Source of the DNA: Nitrospinota bacterium
GTDB lineage: Bacteria; Nitrospinota_A; UBA7883
DNA: 64,000 bases
Assembly: GCA_965223725.1 (NCBI GenBank)
Contig: CBDCXE010000006.1
Location: forward strand, 610,012 to 674,011
Direction of reading: 5' to 3'
Shown here: piece after piece, positions 2,898-44,305 of the stretch
Numbering within the stretch: position 1 is the first letter of the stretch
Layout of the letters: each line of letters starts with the position of its first letter
Program-made: the position numbers and the translations under genes
The notes under the pieces: generated by a model
Told to the model about the DNA's origin: nothing
The model's input: only the letters and a program-made list of their open reading frames with translations
Database searches by the model: none

Positions 2898-4228
2898 AGT
2901 CCTGCTCTCATAAGTAATTCAGACATAAATACCCTGTTTGGGTCAAGTTTATTAATTCGGTCAATAGTAAGTTCATACTCTGGATAACTGGCAGACACGA
3001 CCTCCTGTGAAAGTCGGGAGTCTTTAATCAGGTTGGGAATTGCTTTATGCTCCAGGCAAAGCTCGTCAAAAGCTGTGAGAAATATCGATGTAGAACTTGT
3101 CTGGGCCATATCAAGCGTAACGCATATCCCAGGGCCTGCAAAGCGAAAACCAGTTTGCAAGCCAGATGATTTTTTTAATGATATCATGACACCAGGAGCA
3201 TTGTGATTAAACAGCAACGCTTCCAAAAGTTCAAGGAATGCCCCTGCTTTTTCATCAGTTATAATTACCTGCGCTTCCGCCAAACCACGCTTGCCATAGG
3301 CTAAAAAATAATATGGGTTGGCGGCGAAAGGAAAAGTTGATGCAAATAACGATATATTGTTCGTAGAAGTTTTTTTCTCTTCTTGATGCAAATAAAATTT
3401 TAAAGCTGCATTTCTCAATGGGCTGGCCCAAAGGGAGATAGGTGAAATAGAGCGAGCTCGAGCGGTGATGGGTCGGTATGAGGGTGGAGATGTGAATTTA
3501 CCATTTCCCTCTGCTGGTTCACCTGTATACAAAAATCCTCGACCGAATAATCCTTTCGTGGGAGACGCAACATGGAATGTATAGGCAAAATTGGAAGAAG
3601 AAACAGCGCTCGAACGTAATTGTTCCAAACCTTCTGTCAATGAGTTTAGTGAACTGCGATGGAGAAGAGTCTTTTCTCCCTTTTTAATTTGTTCAAGACG
3701 AAGAGTGGCGCTTACGATAATTCCTGTGGAGCCATAACCACCACAGGTCAAATCGAAAAGTTCCTTGTTTTCTTCTTCCGACAACGTAATAAGACCATGA
3801 GCAGGATGATAGAGGACTAATGAGATTACACAAGAATGAAAGCTTCCTGCAACTCCAAAATTTTTTCCGTTTACATCTGCAGCAATGCAACCTCCAATAG
3901 TGATATCTGGATAGCCAGGTTGGACACCAAGGGCAAGCCCACGCCGGGAGGTGGCGCCTAAAAGTTCCCCCAGGGTTATACCAGCCTCAACAGTGACTGT
4001 TTTATTATTTTCATCCAGGAAAAGGATTCTGGAAAAAGAACGCATGGAGACCGTAGTGACACCTTGTCCAAAAGAGGCCGCTGCATAGGAATAGCCGCCA
4101 CCTTGAGCAATATATGGCCCTTTAGCCCACGTTTGGTCAAACACACGGTATCTATCAGGCCGCGCAAAGTCAGAAGAGATAGATATCTGGCCATCGAAAG
4201 ATAAAAATTTGCTTAACTCTGTTTTCAC
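2894..4228 (-). CDS. FAD-linked oxidase, DprE1-like (polyprenyl-phospho-sugar 2-oxidase)
   Basis: GGCIAADVNGKNFGVAGSFHSCV and STGIIVSATLRL match the DprE1 FAD-binding (PCMH) core GGAIACDIHGKNHHSAGSF / LTGIIMRATIEM. The C-terminal KDSR...YP...INKLDPNRVFMSELLMRAGL matches the DprE1 C-terminus. Confidence 0.75.
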   Translation of the reverse strand: MKTELSKFLSFDGQISISSDFARPDRYRVFDQTWAKGPYIAQGGGYSYAAASFGQGVTTVSMRSFSRILFLDENNKTVTVEAGITLGELLGATSRRGLALGVQPGYPDITIGGCIAADVNGKNFGVAGSFHSCVISLVLYHPAHGLITLSEEENKELFDLTCGGYGSTGIIVSATLRLEQIKKGEKTLLHRSSLNSLTEGLEQLRSSAVSSSNFAYTFHVASPTKGLFGRGFLYTGEPAEGNGKFTSPPSYRPITARARSISPISLWASPLRNAALKFYLHQEEKKTSTNNISLFASTFPFAANPYYFLAYGKRGLAEAQVIITDEKAGAFLELLEALLFNHNAPGVMISLKKSSGLQTGFRFAGPGICVTLDMAQTSSTSIFLTAFDELCLEHKAIPNLIKDSRLSQEVVSASYPEYELTIDRINKLDPNRVFMSELLMRAGL

Positions 4229-12394: not shown

Positions 12395-12470
12395 GCCGGC
12401 GTAGCTCAGTTGGTAGAGCAGCTGATTTGTAATCAGCAGGCCGCGGGTTCGAGTCCCATCGCCGGCTCCA
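12395..12470 (+). tRNA. thrU: tRNA-Thr (anticodon TGT)
   Basis: Cloverleaf read by eye. Acceptor stem GCCGGCG/CGCCGGC. GTAGCTCAGTTGGTAGAGC D-arm. Anticodon loop TTTGTAA. GGTTCGAGTCC T-arm. Encoded CCA. Confidence 0.9.
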
Positions 12471-12541
12471 TATGTTTCCAGCTGTCAGTGGCGGTGTTAG
12501 TCTATTAATTATAATAATTTAGAAAGTCCATAGTTGGATTC

Positions 12542-12626
12542 GGGGAGGTTCCCGAGTGGTCAAAGGGAGCAGACTGTAAATCTGCCGGCATAGCCTTCGG
12601 AGGTTCGACTCCTCCCCTCCCCACCA
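12542..12626 (+). tRNA. tyrU: tRNA-Tyr (anticodon GTA)
   Basis: 85 nt with a long variable arm. Anticodon loop ACTGTAAAT. GGTTCGACTCC T-arm. Acceptor stem GGGGAGG/CCTCCCC. CCA encoded. Confidence 0.9.
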
Positions 12627-12639
12627 TTTATTAGGTTGG

Positions 12640-12715
<76 letters not shown>

Positions 12716-12787
12716 TTGGTTTCTAATCGCAGGAGCGATGGAGCGAAGGATATAGGCAAAGAGAGCGCTTACGCTTTTTAATAAAGC

Positions 12788-12862
12788 GCCCGCGTAGCTC
12801 AGTGGTGGAGCGCTTCCTTGGTAAGGAAGAGGTCATCGGTTCAATCCCGATCGCGGGCTCCA
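12788..12862 (+). tRNA. thrT: tRNA-Thr (anticodon GGT)
   Basis: Acceptor stem GCCCGCG/CGCGGGC. Anticodon loop TTGGTAA. GGTTCAATCC T-arm. CCA encoded. Confidence 0.9.
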
Positions 12863-14353: not shown

Positions 14354-14430
14354 AGGCCAGTAGCTCTAACGGCTAGAGCACCGCGCTCCAAACGCGGGTG
14401 TTGGGGGTTCGAATCCCTCCTGGCCTGCCA
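14354..14430 (+). tRNA. tRNA-Trp (anticodon CCA)
   Basis: Acceptor stem AGGCCAG/CTGGCCT. Anticodon loop CTCCAAA. GGTTCGAATCC T-arm. CCA encoded. Confidence 0.88.
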
Positions 14431-17733: not shown

Positions 17734-20700
17734 ATGAGTAAAACAGTAGGCTACAGATCAGGTAGAGAGCCGATCAAGCGGCAGAATTTTTCAAGGATTC
17801 CATCGATCATTGATATTCCCAACATGCTTGAGGTTCAAACCAGATCGTACGAGAAGTTTCTGCAAAGAAACAGCCAACCTAATAATCGCGAAGATATAGG
17901 TTTACTGGAAGTATTTACCAGAACATTTCCGATTTCAGATTATAACGACACGGCGACACTTGAGTTCAAAGGCTATGAGCTTGGCATCTGGGAGTGCAAC
18001 TGTGGCGAATATATGGAGCTCGGCGGCCCTGGTGTTGTATGCGCCAGTTGCGGCAAAGAGGTTGTATACAAAGAGAAATTCCAGGTCAGTGAATGCCGCC
18101 AAAGGGGGCTGACGTACGCCGATCCTTTAAAAATACTGGTCCAACTTATCATATATAGCGTTGATGAAGATACGGGCGAGAAAGTGATCCGGGAAGTCAA
18201 GGAACAGAAAATATACCTGGGTGAGATCCCTTTGATGACCCAGACCGGCACATTCATTATAAATGGAACAGAGCGTGTGGCGGTAAGCCAGATGCACCGT
18301 TCGCCAGGTGCAGTATTTACATCGGAAAAGGGTAAAGGCTCCCAGGCGGGGCAGATGGTCTATTCCGCCAGGCTGATACCGTACAGGGGTTCCTGGCTCG
18401 ACTTCGAGTTCGACATCAAGGATTTTCTGAATGTGCGTATCGACCGGCGCAGAAAGTTTTTTGTCACTACACTGTTAAGGGCTTTGGGTTACGACACGGA
18501 AGATATCTTGTCATATTTTTATAAATTTGTGCAGGTTAACTATAATACGGACAAGGATGAGTTTAACGTCAATACTGGCAAAGAGCTGCTCGGTATAGGC
18601 TTCAAGCCGGCATCAGAGGTCAAGGATGGGAAGACCGGCGATGTTATAGCCAAGGCAGGCCGCAAGCTGACAAAGAAAAGCATGAAGCTGATGCTGGCGT
18701 CTGGCGTAGAATCAATGCCGATCGACGCTGAAGATTTAATTGGCAAATTTTGCGCGGAAGATGTGGTGGACGAGCAGTCTGGCGAAGTGCTAATCGAGAT
18801 CAACACTGCAATCTCTGAAGAAACGTTGGATATCATAAGGTCGAGAAAGATCAGCGGCTTTCAGATTTTGGGTATCGGTGAACAGTTAAACGATACAGCC
18901 ATCCGAGATACAATGGCGCTCGACAAGGTTGAAACGGAAGAAGAAGCGTTAAAAGAGATTTATAAACGAATGCGTCCAGGAGATCCGCCCACGGCTGAAA
19001 CCGCAAAAACGCTATTCGACAACCTTTTTTTCGACCCAAAACGGTATGACCTCTCGGAGGTGGGCCGGCTGAAATTGAATGACAAGCTGGAACTTGATTA
19101 TCCATTGAACCAGAGGTTGCTTACCAAAGAAGATATTTTAAAAACGGTCCGTGTCCTGATCGATCTGCGACAAGGCATCGGGCAGACTGATGACATCGAC
19201 CATTTAGGCAACCGGAGAGTTCGATCCGTGGGCGAGTCGGTGGAAAACCAGTTCCGGGTTGGGCTTGTCCGTATGGAAAAGGCAATCAAGGAGCGGATGA
19301 ACATGATGGATCTTGCGGTATCAATGCCGCACGACCTGATAAACGCGAAGCCTGTTACCGCCGCTATAAGGGAGTTTTTCGGATCGAGCCAGCTATCACA
19401 ATTTATGGATCAGACAAACCCGCTTTCGTCTATCACCCACAAACGGCGTTTATCGGCATTGGGTCCTGGCGGTTTGACCAGGGAGCGCGCAGGGTTCGAA
19501 GTGCGTGACGTGCACCCCAGCCACTATGGCCGGATATGCCCCATCGAAACCCCTGAAGGGCCGAACATCGGTCTGATCTCTTCTCTGTCGACTTTTGCGC
19601 GGGTTAACGATTTTGGGTTTATCGAAACACCATACAGAAAAGCGGAGAACGGCGTTGTCACCAACGAGGTGCATTATCTGTCCGCCATGGAAGAGGATAA
19701 ATATACGATCGCGCAGGCGAACGCGCTGCTGGATGAAAATGGCAGGTTCATCAAGGACCTGATCCAGACCAGGCAACGGGGCGATTATGTCATGGCGCCG
19801 CCGACCGAGATCGACTATATGGATGTCTCGCCCAAACAGCTGGTGTCTGTGGCCGCCGCGCTGATACCGTTTTTGGAGAATGATGACGCCAACAGGGCGC
19901 TGATGGGGTCTAACATGCAACGTCAGGCTGTGCCTTTATTACATACGGAAGCGCCACTGGTGGGCACTGGTATGGAAGCGATCGTTTCCCGTGATTCCGG
20001 TGCTGTCGTGGTGGCGCGCAACTCTGGCGAGGTTATCAGCCTCGACTCTGGCCGTATCGTTGTCCGAACAGACGCAAAGAGCAGGGATAAATCCCAGGTG
20101 GATATTTATAACCTGACGAAGTATGACCGGTCGAACCAGAACACCTGTGTCAACCAGATACCGATCGTGTCGTTGGGGCAAAAGATCAAAAGCGGCGATG
20201 TGATCGCCGATGGTCAATCGACCGACCGGGGCGAGCTGGCGCTGGGTCGTAACGTGCTGGTGGCTTTTATGCCATGGAACGGCTACAACTTCGAGGACGC
20301 TATCATAGTCTCGGAGAAGCTGGTGAAACGGGATGTGTACACTTCGATTCATATTGAGGAGTTTGAAGTAGAAGCGCGCGATACCCGACAGGGCAATGAA
20401 GAGATCACCGCTGATATACCGAATATTTCTGAAGAAGCGCTCAAAAATCTCGACGAGTCAGGAATCATCAGGATAGGCGCCAAGGTAAAGACCGGAGATA
20501 TCCTGGTCGGCAAAGTTACTCCTAAAGGTGAAACGCTATTATCACCGGAAGAAAAGCTGCTAAAAGCGATTTTCGGTGAAAAAGCGGGCGATGTGCGTGA
20601 CACATCCCTGAAAGTTCCGCCTGGAAACGAAGGAACCGTTATCAGCGTAAAAGTGTTCACCCGCAGGGGCGCGGAAAAGGACGCGCGCACCCTGGCCATA

Positions 20701-21783
20701 GAGGAAGAAGAAAAGGCCCGCCTGGAGAAAGATATGTCGGAGGAGATTTCGATTGTTTCGCAGGAGCGGGATGTGAAACTGCGCTCCATGCTGGTGGGAA
20801 GGGAAGTGGCAGCCCCTCTAAAAAGAGGGTCGAAAGATGACATAGAGGCCAAAACAATTCTTACAGAGGAAGTGTTGGCGGATCTGGATGGCAGGGACCT
20901 GCTTAAACTCGAAATTTCTAAACCGGGCGACATTATTGAAAAAATTACCCAGGTGGAAGAAGAGAGCAAAACACTGATTGATGAGCTTCGCAACAGATAT
21001 GAAGATCGAATCGATAAATTCTCCCGGGGCGACGAGCTGGCCCCTGGTGTTATCAAGATGGTCAAGGTATATGTCGCCATCAAGCGCAAACTTCAGGTGG
21101 GTGACAAAATGGCCGGAAGACATGGTAACAAAGGTGTTGTCTCTGTCATCGTGCCAGAAGAGGACATGCCTTTTACAGAGGATGGACAGCCGGTTGAGGT
21201 TGTGCTGAATCCGCTGGGCGTGCCATCCCGTATGAACGTCGGCCAGATAATGGAGACCAATCTGGGCATGGCGGCCAAGCGTCTTGGCGAGCATATGATG
21301 ACCCCGGTGTTTGATGGGGCGCATGAAAAAGATATTACTGATCTGCTGGAGCAATCGGGTTATCCGGCCAATGGCAAGATCTCGCTGATTGATGGAATGA
21401 GCGGCGAACAGTTCGAGCAGAAAGTGCTGGTCGGCTATATATATATGCTCAAGCTGCACCATCTGGTGGACGACAAGATACATGCCCGTTCCACCGGCCC
21501 ATACTCGCTGGTTACCCAACAGCCCTTGGGCGGCAAGGCCCAGTTCGGTGGACAACGGTTGGGTGAAATGGAGGTCTGGGCGCTGGAGGCCTATGGCGCC
21601 GCGCATACCCTGCAGGAGATGCTGACCGTTAAATCGGACGATGTGGAGGGCCGCAAACGGATGTATGAGTCGATCGTTAAAGGTGATCATTCCCTCAACC
21701 CCGGCCTTCCGGAATCGTTTAACGTCCTGGTCAAAGAGCTGCAGGCGCTGGCCCTGGATGTGGAGCTGATGCAACAGTCGTAG
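17734..21783 (+). CDS. rpoB: DNA-directed RNA polymerase subunit beta
   Basis: 1349 aa. [33 protein letters not shown] and the rest of the universal beta regions. Contains an extra CxC...CxxC insertion at aa 88-112. Confidence 0.97.
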
Positions 21784-21848: not shown

Positions 21849-26147
<4,299 letters not shown>

Positions 26148-26259: not shown

Positions 26260-28053
26260 ATGTTTGGATTCAAGGAGATTGGGAAAACCGGGAAAAAGAT
26301 ATCCGACATCCTGGAAACCTGGGGATCGCACGAGCATACATTCCTGATTGTGGTTTCCGGCTTGCTCGGTGTAATCTGCGGTTTGCTGGCCGTTGTATTC
26401 GAGCAGTTGATAGATATGGTATGGGATGGTTTTTTCGAACATCCCAAGTTTTTGTTTTCCAGCGATTCCAGCTTATATTACTACATCCTTGTTCCACTGA
26501 TCCCTGCGCTGGGAGGCCTGTTGATCGGGTTGTTGACCTGGCGGTTCAAAATGGGTTACGAGTCTGCTTCCGCCGCTGAAGTGATGAAATGGGCTGCGGT
26601 TGATGGTGGGTCGGTTAAGCCGAGGACCATATGGTTTCGCATGTTATCCACAATTATATTTTTAGGCAGTGGCGGTTCCGGAGGACGTGAAGGCCCCATC
26701 GCGCAAATCTGCGGCGCCATGGGCTCCGCCATAGGTCAGTTTCTGAAAATGTCTACAGACAGGCTGCGACTGCTCGTTGGTTGCGGCGCGGCGGCGGGCA
26801 TCGCGGCGTCGTTTAATGCTCCGATCGCTGGTGTTATTTTCACGGTGGAGCTTATCCTGGGCGACTTTAATGTCATATCGTTCCTGCCGCTGGTCATCAG
26901 CTCTGTCATGGCCACAACCACCAAACGATTACTGATCGGTGATGTGCCCGCATTCGTCGCGCCCTCCTATTCCCTGGTTTCATATTGGGAGATCGTTCTT
27001 TACTTTATCCTTGGTATACTTTGCGGCCTGGTATCGATGCTGTTCTTCAAGGTTTATTTTAAAGTGGATGAATTCTTTAGTAAAAAAGTGAACATTCACC
27101 CTGTTTTAAAACCAGCGTTGGGCGGGCTGATAATCGGGTTCATCGCCATCTTCTTTCCACAGGTGATGGGCGGTGGTTACACTGTGATGGACGATATGCT
27201 AAACGGCCATATGATCTGGTATATTGCGCTGGCGCTTATATTCATGAAGATCATCGCTACTGCGATTTCGCTCGGCTCTGGTGGCTCGGGTGGTGTGTTC
27301 GCTCCTGCTCTGTTTATCGGGTGTATGACCGGGGGTGTGGTGGGTTCGCTGGCAAACGCGGTTTTCCCCGATTCCACAGCTTCCGCTGGAGCGTACGCAA
27401 TGGTGGGTATTGGCGCCGTTATGGCGGCTGTCGCCCATGCGCCGCTCACCAATATATTGATGGGATATGAGCTTACCGGTAATTATCTGATCATTCTCCC
27501 GATCATGACTGCTTGCATTATGTCCACTTTTGTTATGACCCGCTATTCCGACAAATCACTTTATACAGAGAAGCTGAGCCGACGCGGTATTGAGCTGTGG
27601 CGCGGGCGCGACCTGACCATCATGGATAAAATCAAGGTGTCGGATGTGATGCATAAGAGCGTGACCACTATACCCGAACATCTTCCATTCGGCGAGTTGA
27701 TGCAGTTGGTGGCAAGCTCCCGGGATAACTATTTTCCGGTTGTGGACAGGGATGAAAAACTGAGCGGGATAATATCGATGCAGAATATCAGGGAGATCAT
27801 GCTCGACTCGGAAGATCTGTGCAACCTGGTGGTGGCCAAAGAGATTGCCACTCTGGATGTATTGACACTCCATGGCGATAATAACCTGAATGAAGCAATG
27901 GAAAAATTTGGACTGCGTGATATTGAGCAGCTGCCGGTGGTCAGGGCGGACGAGCCGAGGATAATTGTCGGGATGTTGAGCCGTATGGATGTTATCGCCG
28001 CATATAAAAAGGAAGTGCTTAAAAAAACAACATCGGCTGAAGAGAGCGTGTAA
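26260..28053 (+). CDS. ClC-family voltage-gated chloride channel / H+-Cl- antiporter with C-terminal tandem CBS domains
   Basis: GSGGSGGREGP and GSGGSGGVFAP selectivity-filter-like motifs. ~10-12 TM segments. Two CBS-like repeats at the C-terminus. Confidence 0.85.
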   Translation: MFGFKEIGKTGKKISDILETWGSHEHTFLIVVSGLLGVICGLLAVVFEQLIDMVWDGFFEHPKFLFSSDSSLYYYILVPLIPALGGLLIGLLTWRFKMGYESASAAEVMKWAAVDGGSVKPRTIWFRMLSTIIFLGSGGSGGREGPIAQICGAMGSAIGQFLKMSTDRLRLLVGCGAAAGIAASFNAPIAGVIFTVELILGDFNVISFLPLVISSVMATTTKRLLIGDVPAFVAPSYSLVSYWEIVLYFILGILCGLVSMLFFKVYFKVDEFFSKKVNIHPVLKPALGGLIIGFIAIFFPQVMGGGYTVMDDMLNGHMIWYIALALIFMKIIATAISLGSGGSGGVFAPALFIGCMTGGVVGSLANAVFPDSTASAGAYAMVGIGAVMAAVAHAPLTNILMGYELTGNYLIILPIMTACIMSTFVMTRYSDKSLYTEKLSRRGIELWRGRDLTIMDKIKVSDVMHKSVTTIPEHLPFGELMQLVASSRDNYFPVVDRDEKLSGIISMQNIREIMLDSEDLCNLVVAKEIATLDVLTLHGDNNLNEAMEKFGLRDIEQLPVVRADEPRIIVGMLSRMDVIAAYKKEVLKKTTSAEESV

Positions 28054-40973: not shown

Positions 40974-41711
40974 ATGAACGAAAAAATCGATATACAAGTA
41001 CAAAAAGAAACCGAGCGCTCCGACAAGTCCAAGCTTAGGCAATATCAGGACATGGTGGTGGGCAGCCGGTCGATATGGTTTTTGATCAAGTTCGAGCTGG
41101 TCGCTTTGTTTGTATCACGAATTCCCGGGGCGCTGGGCCTGCTGTTGCGGAAAATATTTTATCCAATGATATTGGCGGAAGTGGGCAGCGGTGTAGTGTT
41201 TGGGACAGACTGCTGGTTCCGCCACCCGGGCAAGATAAGAATAGGCGCCGACACGATTATAGACGACGGTGTGTTGATCGACGCCAAAGGATCGAACAAT
41301 AAAGGTGTACTTATCGGCCGGGGCTGCTACATAGGCCGGGGGACGGTGCTCAGCTGCAAGGAGGGGGACATCATACTGGGCGAGGCTGTGAACCTTTCCA
41401 CATGGTGCAATATTTCTTCAAACTCCAGTATCGAGATCGAAGAGAAAACATTGCTGGGCCCCTACGCTTCCATATTCGCCACGGAGCACAACTTCGATGA
41501 TCCAGGCATCGATATCCTGGATCAGAAATGGTCCAGCAAGGGCGTGACGATAAAACGGAACTGTTGGCTGGGCGCCAGGGTGACCGTGCTGGATGGTGTC
41601 AGCGTGGGGGCCAATACCATTATCGGCGCCGGCTCGGTGGTCAACGATGATTTGCCGGATGATGCGATCGCGGTGGGCTCGCCGGCGAAAACTGTGAAAC
41701 AGAGGCGATGA
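40974..41711 (+). CDS. membrane-anchored left-handed beta-helix (hexapeptide-repeat) acetyltransferase, WcaF/NeuD-like sugar O-acetyltransferase
   Basis: N-terminal TM helix. Hexapeptide repeats IGRGCYIGRGTV...LGARVTVLDGVSVGANTIIGAGSVV. Confidence 0.7.
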   Translation: MNEKIDIQVQKETERSDKSKLRQYQDMVVGSRSIWFLIKFELVALFVSRIPGALGLLLRKIFYPMILAEVGSGVVFGTDCWFRHPGKIRIGADTIIDDGVLIDAKGSNNKGVLIGRGCYIGRGTVLSCKEGDIILGEAVNLSTWCNISSNSSIEIEEKTLLGPYASIFATEHNFDDPGIDILDQKWSSKGVTIKRNCWLGARVTVLDGVSVGANTIIGAGSVVNDDLPDDAIAVGSPAKTVKQRR

Positions 41712-44305
41712 CCCAACTCAGCCCCATAAGCCGGGCAATCGCTGTTTTCATTATTTTTTTCGGGTTGGGCATAGCGCACTCCTGGCCGCTGGCTCCGTAT
41801 GTATTAAAGGGCATCCCATACGCCCTGGACCCGATTCCCAACCATGAGCTGTTCCCGCTCCAGCATGGCGACCACCTTCAATCGTACTACCACCTGGGGC
41901 TGCTGAAAAATGCGGCGGCGGGTCGGATCGACTGGTTCACTAACCCGCTGGAGTTCGTCACCGAACATGAATCGGGCGATCATCCGGCGAGCTATTATTT
42001 TCTGCCGGTGTCGATTATCTCGTTGCCGTTTTCCGCTGTTTCCGAGCCGCTGGGGTATAACATGCTGCTGCTGATATGTGTCGCGCTGGGCGGCTTGTCG
42101 ATGTATTTGTGGGCGAACCTGCTGATCGGCAACTTCTGGGCAGGACTGTTTGCCGGGTTTCTGTTTAATTTTATCCCGGTCCGCATGGCGGAGCTTTATG
42201 GCGGGCACCCGGCCGGCCTTGCTATCTTCCTCCTGCCGTTGACGCTCTATTTTTTCGACCGGGCAATCATAGAAAAAAGGATTCTGTTTTCCGCGCTGGG
42301 CGGCCTGGCGCTGTTTGCGCTCTCCTTCCAGTACCTCTATTTCAGCTACTACCTGCTGATGTTCCTGATGGTTTATATACCGTGGCGGCTGGTTCCTGCT
42401 GTTGTGGGGTCGGTTAACAAAGGATGGGATGAAGTTTGCAAGTTGGCGGGCGCCAGTCTCCCGTTTGCCATCGGCGCCTTGTCGGCGATCGGGTGGATGT
42501 ACTACTATTCCCGTTCTGTGGTGGCGTCATCCGCCTTTTCCGCTAAACGGACCATGAACGAGGTGGCGCTGTTTTCCCCCGATATTTCCAGCGCCTGGTC
42601 GCCCCAATTGGATTGGAAAGTCTATTTCGGTCTGCCGATCATTGCGCTGCTTTTTGGTCTGATAGTTGGCGTCGTTAAAGTTATCAACCGCAAACCCATA
42701 GGGTGGGAGTATCTGTTTTTTTCGATTCTTTTTGTTGTCAGCTATATCCTGGCCTTTGGCGCGACCCTGGACCGGTATATCCCGCTCTATTCACTTTTCT
42801 ACGATTACTTTCCATACTTCGACCTGTCGAGGTCGCCATCCAAGATCATGGCTCTCTGCGCCGCGTTGCTTGCCGTTCTGGGCGCGTATTTCGTAAGCTG
42901 GGCGTGGCGGAGAGCAGGCGGCGGCTTTATATGGAGGTCGGTCGTGGCGTTGCTGGCCGCCATTACCATCATCGATTACCACCCCAACGGCGGTATCGGC
43001 ATTTGCCTGCTGGACAGGGGCAACAAAATCTATAAACAAATAGCGGAAACATCCGATGGTGGATACGTATTGAACCTGCCCATATGGCCCGGCGACAGCT
43101 CGTGGGAGTCTATATACCAGTATTACGCCTTACAAAGCGGGGTGGCGATGGTCAACGGGTATTCGCCGGTGGTTTCCAAAAGCTATGTGGATAATGTTTT
43201 CTGGAAGCTGTTCACCATGAACAGCGGTAATGTGACGAAGGAGCAGATAAACTTTCTGAAAGATAAAAACGTAAAGGCGATCGTGTTCCATGAAGAAGCT
43301 TATCCAAACAAAGTTTCGCCATTTCCAGCGTCTGTCGCATTGAACAGATTAAAATCATCCGCTCTGCTTGATATGGTGGGGCAGGATGGGCCGCTGACAC
43401 TTTTCAGAATATCCGATAGCGAACAGGCCAAAAACGATCGACCGGTCAGCTCCCCCATGTCCGCCCTGTACCAGGCGGAGGCGCTGATAAAAATCGATGG
43501 AAAAGTGATGGAGGATGATGACGCTGTAAACGACCTGGCGCTATATGGCGCCGGCGCTATGAGGAGGACCGGTTTCCTCGGCGCAGGGCCGTATCAAAGT
43601 TTTCCAAGTGGCAGTTATAATGCTGTTTTCCGGGCAAAAGTGGCGGACAACACCATAGATGAACTGGCGGTTCTGTTCGATGTGTCAGCCAACAGCGGGA
43701 GGGACGTTTTAGCCAAGCTGGCCATTAAAAATTCTGATTTCGTTGAGCCGGACAAATATCAGGAGTTTGCTTTACCGTTCGAAGTTGTTGCTGAGAAGTC
43801 AACCAAGATTGAGTTTCGTTCCGCCCTGCCGGAAAGCAGCGCCGGGGTATATGTGGACTGGATATATGTGACCTTTGCTGATCAAACCGACCCGGAGTAT
43901 TCCTATGAGATCGAAGATTTCTTCCATATAGGCGCGACGGTGGAGGACCAGATGGCGTCTGCGGGCAAATCCTTGTATGCTCATCCAGACCAGGACCCTG
44001 CGGGTATGATCGCCCATGGCCCAATGCGGAAACTGGAGGAGGGCGCGTACATCGCCTATTTCAGAATGAAAGCTGATATGGTGGAGGCAGACAGCCGGGT
44101 CGCTGTGCTGGAGGTGGCGTCCGCTGGCAGATCTGAAACGATCGCACAGCGTGATGTGATGGGCAGGGAGCTGGGGGGCAGCAGCGGTTACATCGAGGCG
44201 TCCATCGATTTTCTGCTTGAGGAAACCGATTTCATAGATTTCCGCGTCAGGTTCACCGGCGCCACGGCGCTATATCTTGATAAAATCCGGATAGAAAAAA
44301 AGTGA
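41708..44305 (+). CDS. large polytopic membrane protein (865 aa), YfhO/GT-C-like candidate glycosyltransferase with ~350-aa C-terminal extracytoplasmic domain
   Basis: More than 10 hydrophobic helices in the first ~480 aa, with acidic/His motifs in the first loop (HGDH, ESGDH). ATGA overlap with the acetyltransferase gene. Confidence 0.45.
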   Translation: MTQLSPISRAIAVFIIFFGLGIAHSWPLAPYVLKGIPYALDPIPNHELFPLQHGDHLQSYYHLGLLKNAAAGRIDWFTNPLEFVTEHESGDHPASYYFLPVSIISLPFSAVSEPLGYNMLLLICVALGGLSMYLWANLLIGNFWAGLFAGFLFNFIPVRMAELYGGHPAGLAIFLLPLTLYFFDRAIIEKRILFSALGGLALFALSFQYLYFSYYLLMFLMVYIPWRLVPAVVGSVNKGWDEVCKLAGASLPFAIGALSAIGWMYYYSRSVVASSAFSAKRTMNEVALFSPDISSAWSPQLDWKVYFGLPIIALLFGLIVGVVKVINRKPIGWEYLFFSILFVVSYILAFGATLDRYIPLYSLFYDYFPYFDLSRSPSKIMALCAALLAVLGAYFVSWAWRRAGGGFIWRSVVALLAAITIIDYHPNGGIGICLLDRGNKIYKQIAETSDGGYVLNLPIWPGDSSWESIYQYYALQSGVAMVNGYSPVVSKSYVDNVFWKLFTMNSGNVTKEQINFLKDKNVKAIVFHEEAYPNKVSPFPASVALNRLKSSALLDMVGQDGPLTLFRISDSEQAKNDRPVSSPMSALYQAEALIKIDGKVMEDDDAVNDLALYGAGAMRRTGFLGAGPYQSFPSGSYNAVFRAKVADNTIDELAVLFDVSANSGRDVLAKLAIKNSDFVEPDKYQEFALPFEVVAEKSTKIEFRSALPESSAGVYVDWIYVTFADQTDPEYSYEIEDFFHIGATVEDQMASAGKSLYAHPDQDPAGMIAHGPMRKLEEGAYIAYFRMKADMVEADSRVAVLEVASAGRSETIAQRDVMGRELGGSSGYIEASIDFLLEETDFIDFRVRFTGATALYLDKIRIEKK

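Follow-up and report, generated by a model that had tools for sequence, protein, structure and literature searches.

The DNA considered here is a stretch of 64,000 nucleotides from the assembly of a Nitrospinota bacterium (GenBank GCA_965223725.1, contig CBDCXE010000006.1, forward-strand positions 610,012 to 674,011), hereafter the window, in whose coordinates all positions are given. It carries rpoB, the gene encoding RNA polymerase's beta subunit, and our subject is a short segment near the N-terminus of the encoded protein that contains four cysteines and is missing from the E. coli subunit. A preliminary description of the window had singled out this segment as an unusual, zinc-ribbon-like insertion of about 25 residues that mimics the N-terminal zinc-binding motif of the beta-prime subunit, encoded by the adjacent rpoC. 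The peptide quoted there is identical to the translation of 17734-21783 on the plus strand, and the segment it marked, 17986-18075, corresponds to RpoB residues I85-E114. The features on which the argument rests are listed below, with the basis of each assignment in parentheses; strands and confidence values (pLDDT, predicted local distance difference test) are those of the AlphaFold2 (AF2) model described further on.

17734..21783, plus strand: rpoB, RNA polymerase beta subunit, 1349 aa (list of open reading frames (ORFs) and translation)
17953..17982, plus strand: strand T74-L83 entering the insert, beta1 domain (AF2 strand 74-83, pLDDT above 90)
17986..18069, plus strand: 28-aa insert I85-Y112, a four-cysteine (Cys4) zinc-ribbon-like module (gap in the PDB alignment, motif spacing)
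17995..18003, plus strand: first knuckle C88-N89-C90, two putative zinc ligands, following the invariant W86 (conservation, AF2)
18004..18039, plus strand: inter-knuckle loop G91-V102, 12 residues, acidic and glycine-rich (conservation, charge)
18040..18051, plus strand: second knuckle C103-A-S-C106, two putative zinc ligands (conservation; aligns with E. coli beta-prime C85 and C88)
18052..18072, plus strand: return strand G107-K113, leading back to canonical beta (AF2 strand; E109, V110, Y112 and K113 conserved)
18196..18204, plus strand: V155-K156-E157, equivalent to E. coli beta I117-K118-E119, the contact for the RNA polymerase interacting domain (RID) of Mfd and CarD (PDB alignment; AF2 strand 150-166)
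21849..26147, plus strand: rpoC, RNA polymerase beta-prime subunit (ORF list and translation; the ORF opens at TTG)
22053..22130, plus strand: N-terminal zinc-binding element of beta-prime in rpoC, beginning at W69, the presumed source of the insert (translation)

Extent of the insert

The first 254 residues of the protein match the beta subunits of the PDB at E 3.5e-70, the Pfam families RNA_pol_Rpb2_1 and Rpb2_2 are both found, and a model of the N-terminal 260 residues recovers only beta chains from the PDB in a Foldseek search (E about 1e-18). When these 254 residues are aligned with the bacterial beta subunits of the PDB, however, the match falls in every case into two blocks: with 7ye1_C, for example, residues 10-83 and 114-254 pair with chain positions 7-79 and 82-222, and residues 84-113 are left unpaired. 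The distance between the FPI and EC motifs that bracket the gap is 55 residues in the window protein and 27 in those 103 of the 120 nearest homologues that lack the insert, and the inserted segment is therefore exactly 28 residues long. An insertion relative to E. coli, as first described, is thus borne out against all beta subunits of known structure, and only its length has to be revised upwards. In E. coli beta numbering it falls between G76 and E77/P78, where the 28 residues take the place of the tight turn of a surface beta-hairpin (G76-P78); immediately afterwards the sequence KEKFQVSEC resumes as the counterpart of E. coli EPVFDVQEC.

Of the eight cysteines in the 1349 residues of RpoB, four lie in the insert, within a span of 19 residues (C88, C90, C103 and C106, or CxC-X12-CxxC). 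A Pfam scan of the insert returned weak generic matches only (TerY_C, A2L_zn_ribbon and L37ae). A 94-residue ORF on the minus strand (17973-18257) overlaps the insert and lies within rpoB; we take it to be spurious.

Conservation within Nitrospinota

The distribution of the insert was examined by scanning a single genome for each GTDB species with a sequence pattern, which gave 213 loci confirmed by tblastn; 80 of these were listed, and the figures on labels, length and retention of all four cysteines refer to those 80. Nearly all carry the labels Nitrospinota, Nitrospinales, Nitrospinaceae or Nitrospina. The inserted segment has the same length in all 80 independent genomes, which rules out an artefact of assembly or annotation, and 77 of the 80 retain all four cysteines, a feature that the preliminary description had named as one on which its proposal could fail. 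The columns of the insert have a mean identity of 0.68 (0.63 when the cysteines are left out), those of the upstream flank 0.67 and those of the downstream flank 0.59. Over 79 Nitrospinota sequences G80, E82, G84, W86, G91, E92 and G97 are invariant, L96 (78/79) and G98 (76/79) are nearly so, and the four cysteines are retained in 76 (C88), 76 (C90), 77 (C103) and 76 (C106). By these comparisons the insert is genuine, is as conserved as the universal flanks of beta and appears to be under purifying selection.

The cysteines are kept or lost together. Distinct Nitrospinota-type sequences comprise 81 with four insert cysteines, two with one and four with none; none has two or three, and the four cysteines therefore behave as one site. 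The sequences P0013, P0126 and P0143, cysteine-less by eye, stand outside this count. In the RpoB tree, the cysteine-less L065 and L078, and separately L080, are nested in four-cysteine Nitrospinaceae, so that at least two of the losses are secondary. In the cysteine-less inserts the exact length, W86 and the loop GE[YF]..LGG are preserved, the longer string GE[YF]..LGG.GV being retained in P0009, P0011, L065 and L078. Since the finger persists in these lineages, zinc would be a structural staple only. The claim of a four-cysteine insertion accordingly holds for most relatives but not for all, as some have kept the insert and dropped all four cysteines. The zinc-binding domain of beta-prime, for its part, is intact at every locus where rpoC is covered, including the contig of P0013, where it stands beside a cysteine-less beta insert.

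On that same contig (L081:3322-7191; ENA ERZ27257347 k141_1173128) rpoB is broken by an in-frame TAA at locus positions 4045-4047 (..KKPVTAL-stop-RAFGMS..) and stands in the gene calls as two genes, 241 and 1043 aa long; the interruption may reflect an error of sequencing, mark a pseudogene or be a stop that is recoded. A separate observation concerns eight contigs with a Nitrospinota-type insert that are labelled Verrucomicrobiota, Nitrospirae or Tectomicrobia (L030, L003, L015, L025, L034, L073, L077 and L070). Those of them placed in the RpoB tree group inside Nitrospinota clades, and the eight are probably mislabelled or contaminated bins.

Relationship to the zinc-binding domain of beta-prime

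The resemblance to beta-prime noted at the outset proves to be close. The insert and the element encoded by rpoC of the same window have 14 of 26 residues in common with equal cysteine spacing, and the shared pattern, WECxCG.Y...G.VC..CG.EV, extends well past the cysteines themselves: where beta-prime reads [WY]ECxCGKY-X8-C-xx-CGVEV, the insert reads WECNCGEY-X8-V-C-AS-CGKEV. When the 22 non-cysteine residues were shuffled with the cysteines held fixed, none of 200,000 shuffles reached the observed BLOSUM62 score of 96 (shuffled scores, 16 +/- 11.6).

A profile built from the insert only, with 36 columns and without the beta flanks, was searched against 177,635 distinct PDB sequences. Of its top 60 matches, 59 are bacterial beta-prime or cyanobacterial gamma subunits (E 2e-4 to 9e-3), each in an ungapped alignment with the zinc-binding domain (residues 69-93 of E. 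coli beta-prime), and the lone exception is archaeal subunit P, matched over 16 residues. A comparison of the insert profile with a profile of Nitrospinota beta-prime by hhalign gives 97.9% over 28 columns. Taken together, these comparisons support homology of the insert with the beta-prime zinc-binding domain, beyond a loose resemblance. At the nucleotide level the insert and the rpoC element are identical at just 45 of 78 positions (58%), which rules out recent gene conversion from rpoC and would place any copying event far in the past; the insert is probably an old copy of the beta-prime motif.

The likeness to the beta-prime domain (E. coli C70, C72, C85 and C88) lies in the motif, the cysteine spacing and the two-knuckle hairpin predicted for both. 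The two differ in location and in chemistry. The beta-prime domain sits on the clamp at the RNA exit channel, whereas residues 85-112 of the window protein sit on the beta1 protrusion of beta, so that the insert is a homologous module at a new location and not itself a beta-prime zinc-binding domain. The beta-prime loop, KYKRMKHKG, is strongly basic, with a net charge of +3 for the element, and its cysteines are kept; the insert loop, EYKELGGPG, is acidic and glycine-rich, with a net charge of -3 for the insert, and the cysteines have been lost in several lineages. E92, where beta-prime has lysine, is invariant.

Predicted fold and position in the beta1 domain

RpoB residues 1-260 were modelled with AlphaFold2 from an alignment of 93 sequences. 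Over residues 81-120, which span the insert, pLDDT is 91-93, and the model places strands at 74-83, at 85-88 (running up to the first knuckle), at 91-92 and, after the second knuckle, at 109-113. Both cysteine pairs (C88-x-C90 and C103-xx-C106) fall at hairpin turns flanked by strands, with pLDDT above 90. The fold check that had been proposed for the insert thus comes out in favour of a ribbon: a two-knuckle beta-hairpin finger is predicted, extending the beta1 sheet. A 53-residue excerpt modelled alone gives the same fold (mean pLDDT 75, core 84-92). In a Foldseek search this smaller model yields 22 matches at E 2-10 and none at E<=0.001, mostly small metal-binding knuckle modules, among them those of Nob1, PolD, Nop10 and the adenylate kinase lid; six of the 22 are the beta-prime zinc-binding domains of M. 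tuberculosis, M. smegmatis and E. coli.

The beta1 domain, situated near the upstream part of the bubble, corresponds to the protrusion of Rpb2 (PMC4593161). Its four strands form an antiparallel sheet, and strand 4, at the edge, pairs with the RID of Mfd, through E. coli beta I117-K118-E119 (Westblade 2010, PMC3001067), and the RID of CarD binds the same lobe (PMC4593161). With window residue 116 anchored to E. coli beta residue 80 in the PDB alignment, the equivalent residues are V155-K156-E157. The crystallized beta1 constructs (3mlq_A of 3MLQ and 4xax_A of 4XAX) align directly past the insert. According to the strand order of the model, the insert replaces a turn at the end of the sheet opposite the tip of the strand 3-4 hairpin, near which the RID binds. 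An overlap with the Mfd/CarD site was considered and is judged unlikely from this topology, since the insert and the edge contact lie at opposite ends of the sheet, and the finger probably does not block either factor.

Related inserts in other phyla

The view that the insert is a feature of Nitrospinota only does not hold: when a profile of the insert plus its flanks was run with HMMER, exhaustively, against 1.84 billion representative proteins, homologues turned up in Acidobacteria and Aquificota. A separate homologue search with a 50-aa alignment gave two short fragments only, as it seems to favour proteins of about the query's length. The HMMER search gave just 42 matches at E<=1e-3, so that the insert is indeed unusual and restricted to particular lineages, as had been suggested, but it is not exclusive to this one. 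Besides Nitrospinota, the matches include many RpoB N-termini with the pattern GNWECKCG.L.GLHHLR..C..CG followed by a second, CxxC...CxxC ribbon, and the named members of this double-ribbon group are Acidobacteria. From the glycine that begins the insert to the Glu-Cys motif that follows it, the Acidobacterial type measures 69-70 aa in 118 of the 120 top matches, while the window protein has 36 aa there, of which 28 are extra, and canonical beta 8 aa; 114 of 119 parsed sequences have exactly eight cysteines.

The Acidobacterial insert shares with that of Nitrospinota its insertion site and the cysteine spacing of its first element, and differs from it in having two sites (the eight cysteines), a greater length and a basic, histidine-rich loop, with two histidines and a net charge of +3. 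By hhalign the first element scores 97.0% against the Nitrospinota insert and 96.3% against the beta-prime domain. Searched against the PDB, its profile is non-discriminating, with eS27 and C2H2 fingers ranking as high as beta-prime. The Pfam families DUF7577, Zn_Ribbon_1 and DZR match the Acidobacterial insert, in the second ribbon, and have no match in the window protein.

In Hydrogenivirga (Aquificota), RpoB carries at the same site the sequence GDWECGNC...GGVGVKCPNCGGTLIYKEKHTVDEC, which has the string GG.GV.C..CG...YKEKH..EC in common with the Nitrospinota insert but differs in its longer loop and in its first knuckle, which is CxxC (CGNC) rather than CxC. This type was found as one four-member cluster (two full-length and one partial further copies). 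These comparisons place the insert in a larger family of patchy distribution. Apart from the insert, the RpoB of the window is closer to insert-less proteins of the Myxococcota/Bdellovibrionota type (60%) than to those of Acidobacteria (52%) or Aquificota (40%), and the patchy distribution would reflect either an ancient gain followed by losses or transfer between lineages.

Two further observations were made among the matches. An Acidobacterial-type RpoB from a soil metagenome (P0179, 388 aa) has an insert of 104 aa with 13 cysteines at residues about 83-186, where an internal duplication seems to have affected the first ribbon with its linker, as CRNCGASVVTNPYKTGDVLCAKCG is present twice; evidently the ribbon module can expand in tandem. 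Three repetitive proteins unrelated to RpoB (P0128, 3013 aa; P0141, 1643 aa; P0154, 479 aa) show, through many repeats, matches to short parts of the insert profile, such as 'SWSGNCG' and 'PLWESQRDEYKG', and these are taken as chance or compositional.

Gene neighbourhood

The genes around rpoB follow the usual order, tuf-secE-nusG-rplKAJL-rpoBC, and rplKAJL-rpoB-rpoC is also found, by Pfam labels, in the related contigs L081 and L082. A tRNA cluster Thr-Tyr-Gly-Thr (12395-12862) precedes tuf and a tRNA-Trp gene (14354-14430) lies between tuf and secE, both in keeping with the usual bacterial arrangement. The true start of rpoC may lie a few codons downstream of the TTG that opens its ORF. RpoC residues about 150-265 (22300-22650), after the zinc-binding domain, appear by eye to form a region some 30-40 residues longer than in the E. 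coli protein, and this stretch may be another lineage-specific insert. After rpoC, the place of rpsL-rpsG-fusA is taken by a ClC chloride channel gene with CBS domains (26260-28053), and farther downstream are yidC, a KH/R3H (Jag-like) gene, dnaN and polA. An 865-aa ORF at 41708-44305 has no Pfam match at E<=1e-5.

Discussion

The reading that we favour, with a probability of roughly 0.65, is that the insert is an old, selectively maintained, lineage-specific insertion in beta1, a zinc-stapled finger derived from rpoC that serves as a docking knob. In this scheme the 5' end of rpoC would long ago have provided a copy of about 84 nt to rpoB, some 4 kb upstream in the same operon, and C88, C90, C103 and C106 would bind one structural Zn2+. 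The core RNA polymerase of E. coli has two zinc sites; the additional one would bring the number in this polymerase to three. The zinc would merely staple the finger, whose fold would outlast the loss of the cysteines, and the finger itself would act as a rigid knob for contact with, or docking of, another protein. Of the functions considered, a protein-contact or docking surface is the most likely, and it is favoured because the loop, basic (+3) in beta-prime, appears to have become acidic and rich in glycine (-3) and is invariant in this new form.

Several considerations weigh against this reading. We infer both the binding of zinc and the docking role of the finger, from sequence and a predicted fold. 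The E-values of the PDB matches are modest, as the motif is only about 26 residues long. In a neighbor-joining tree of the short region, the metagenomic sequences P0009 (labelled Nitrospinota), P0011 and P0013 branch below all four-cysteine Nitrospinota sequences, which leaves a cysteine-less ancestor strictly conceivable. Because the window RpoB is closer to insert-less types than to the other bearers, a single origin of the module would require many losses or transfer between lineages. Finally, the argument from the acidic loop against nucleic-acid binding stops at the Acidobacteria, where the loop is basic (+3, two histidines).

This last point bears on the proposal that the insert is a second nucleic-acid-binding zinc domain that works as the one of beta-prime does, placed on the beta pincer, across from the genuine beta-prime domain, and touching the upstream duplex, the non-template strand or nascent RNA. 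The suggestion in the preliminary description that the ribbon might serve in DNA clamping, made beside that of transcription-factor docking and as a possibility only, is of this kind. It draws on homology with a beta-prime domain that contacts DNA or RNA and is a known hub for Q, AlpA, RbpA, RapA, Rho and putRNA, on the closeness of beta1 to the upstream bubble (PMC4593161), and on the basic, histidine-rich loop (net +3) of the Acidobacterial homologue, for which above all a nucleic-acid role is possible. In Nitrospinota, however, the acidic loop argues against such clamping: EYKELGGPG stands where beta-prime has the basic KYKRMKHKG, with the invariant E92 for lysine and a net charge of -3, and for the insert as a whole we regard this explanation as unlikely. 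Nor do we think it probable that the insert is a tolerated surface decoration, conserved only since a misfolded finger would harm the essential beta1 domain. Precedent exists in the E. coli inserts betai4 and betai9, each of which can be deleted with minor growth defects (PMC2939025), most phyla do without the insert, and its cysteines have been dropped several times while the gene was kept. Yet a length that is constant in 80 of 80 genomes, conservation on a par with the universal flanks and the (near-)invariance of G91, E92, L96, G97 and G98, with the glutamate and glycines kept even in cysteine-less forms, exceed what maintaining the fold of a 28-aa finger would seem to need.

The kinship with beta-prime could itself be questioned, the insert being then an unrelated zinc knuckle that drifted towards the beta-prime sequence under CxxCG-type constraints. 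The motif is short and its Pfam matches are weak and generic, the Foldseek list mixes unrelated Cys4 modules at non-significant E-values, and the Acidobacterial profile ranks eS27 and C2H2 fingers level with beta-prime. Such convergence is nevertheless hard to reconcile with a PDB search in which 59 of the 60 top matches are ungapped, full-length beta-prime or gamma hits although the PDB is rich in other zinc proteins, with a match that reaches past the cysteines (W, E, G, Y, G, V, G, E and V) and was equalled by 0 of 200,000 shuffles, or with a CxC first knuckle followed by exactly 12 residues, which is the beta-prime arrangement; we give it a somewhat lower chance than either of the two proposals above. 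Least probable of all, to the point that we would be surprised by it, is a Cys4 site that acts as a sensor of oxidative or metal stress, whether as a redox switch of the thiol/zinc kind or through a rubredoxin-like iron site. Cys4 knuckles can hold iron, and desulforedoxin-type superoxide reductase domains appear in the non-significant Foldseek list; the alternation of forms with and without cysteines also recalls the zinc-dependent and zinc-independent versions of ribosomal protein S4, a pair reported in PMC3087516. The all-or-none loss of the cysteines, on the other hand, would suit a purely structural site equally well. In beta-prime, the homologous site is a structural zinc site and is not known to act as a sensor.

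It is tempting to go further and to imagine the beta finger as a working twin of the beta-prime domain, moved to the opposite pincer in an ancestor of several phyla and serving there as a second hub at the upstream fork, to which an initiation or elongation factor specific to the lineage would be drawn or which, in Acidobacteria, would hold on to upstream or non-template DNA, with the forms with and without cysteines tracking zinc or redox conditions. We offer this as a speculation that would probably need to be abandoned, its odds being about those of the nucleic-acid-binding proposal.

How, then, does the insert compare with what is known? The catalogued inserts of beta (betai4/SI1, betai9/SI2, betai11, betai12 of Thermus and those of BEAN type) are likewise phylum-limited surface insertions with unchanged flanks, but they are alpha/beta domains of 40 to more than 120 aa (BBM2, BEAN and others) in beta2, the flap and the C-terminal parts, in contrast to the 28-aa predicted metal-binding finger in beta1. 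With its length, its four cysteines and no Pfam domain, the insert is not built from the recurrent BBM2/SBHM, BEAN or HABAS folds. A 2024 survey of BEAN and HABAS inserts in beta and beta-prime describes five insertion sites and nowhere mentions zinc, cysteine or a ribbon. The Nitrospina insert is not described in the literature searched, including the N. gracilis genome paper, the BEAN/HABAS survey and Opalka 2010, nor is a zinc ribbon in a bacterial beta subunit, Lane and Darst's catalogue of betai1-3 aside. The position of betai4, E. coli beta 225-343 (PMC2939025), puts betai1-3 upstream, and the Acidobacterial/Aquificae insert may already be recorded as one of these three, as a bare insertion. 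A parallel of another kind is found in the zinc-ribbon ribosomal proteins, in which one fold likewise occurs with a full Cys4 set or with none and varies between lineages; there, however, paralogues within one genome are switched by zinc, whereas the insert belongs to a single-copy essential gene and varies from lineage to lineage.

Lineage-specific inserts are where bacterial RNA polymerases diverge in regulation, and those in the surveys examined are larger alpha/beta domains; none binds metal or stems from another subunit of the polymerase. With a zinc finger of beta-prime type, beta1 would carry a new kind of insert, an instance of a motif copied between the two large subunits within their operon. 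The insert sits in the domain on which CarD and Mfd act. If zinc is bound, these enzymes would have an extra metal site, and the lineages missing all four cysteines would be natural mutants for the role of the metal. In practical terms, the insert provides a sequence signature for Nitrospinota rpoB and a quick diagnostic of mislabelled or contaminated bins. As it stands, it marks the RNA polymerase of the Nitrospinota, which are major marine nitrite oxidisers, just as its doubled form marks that of the Acidobacteria.

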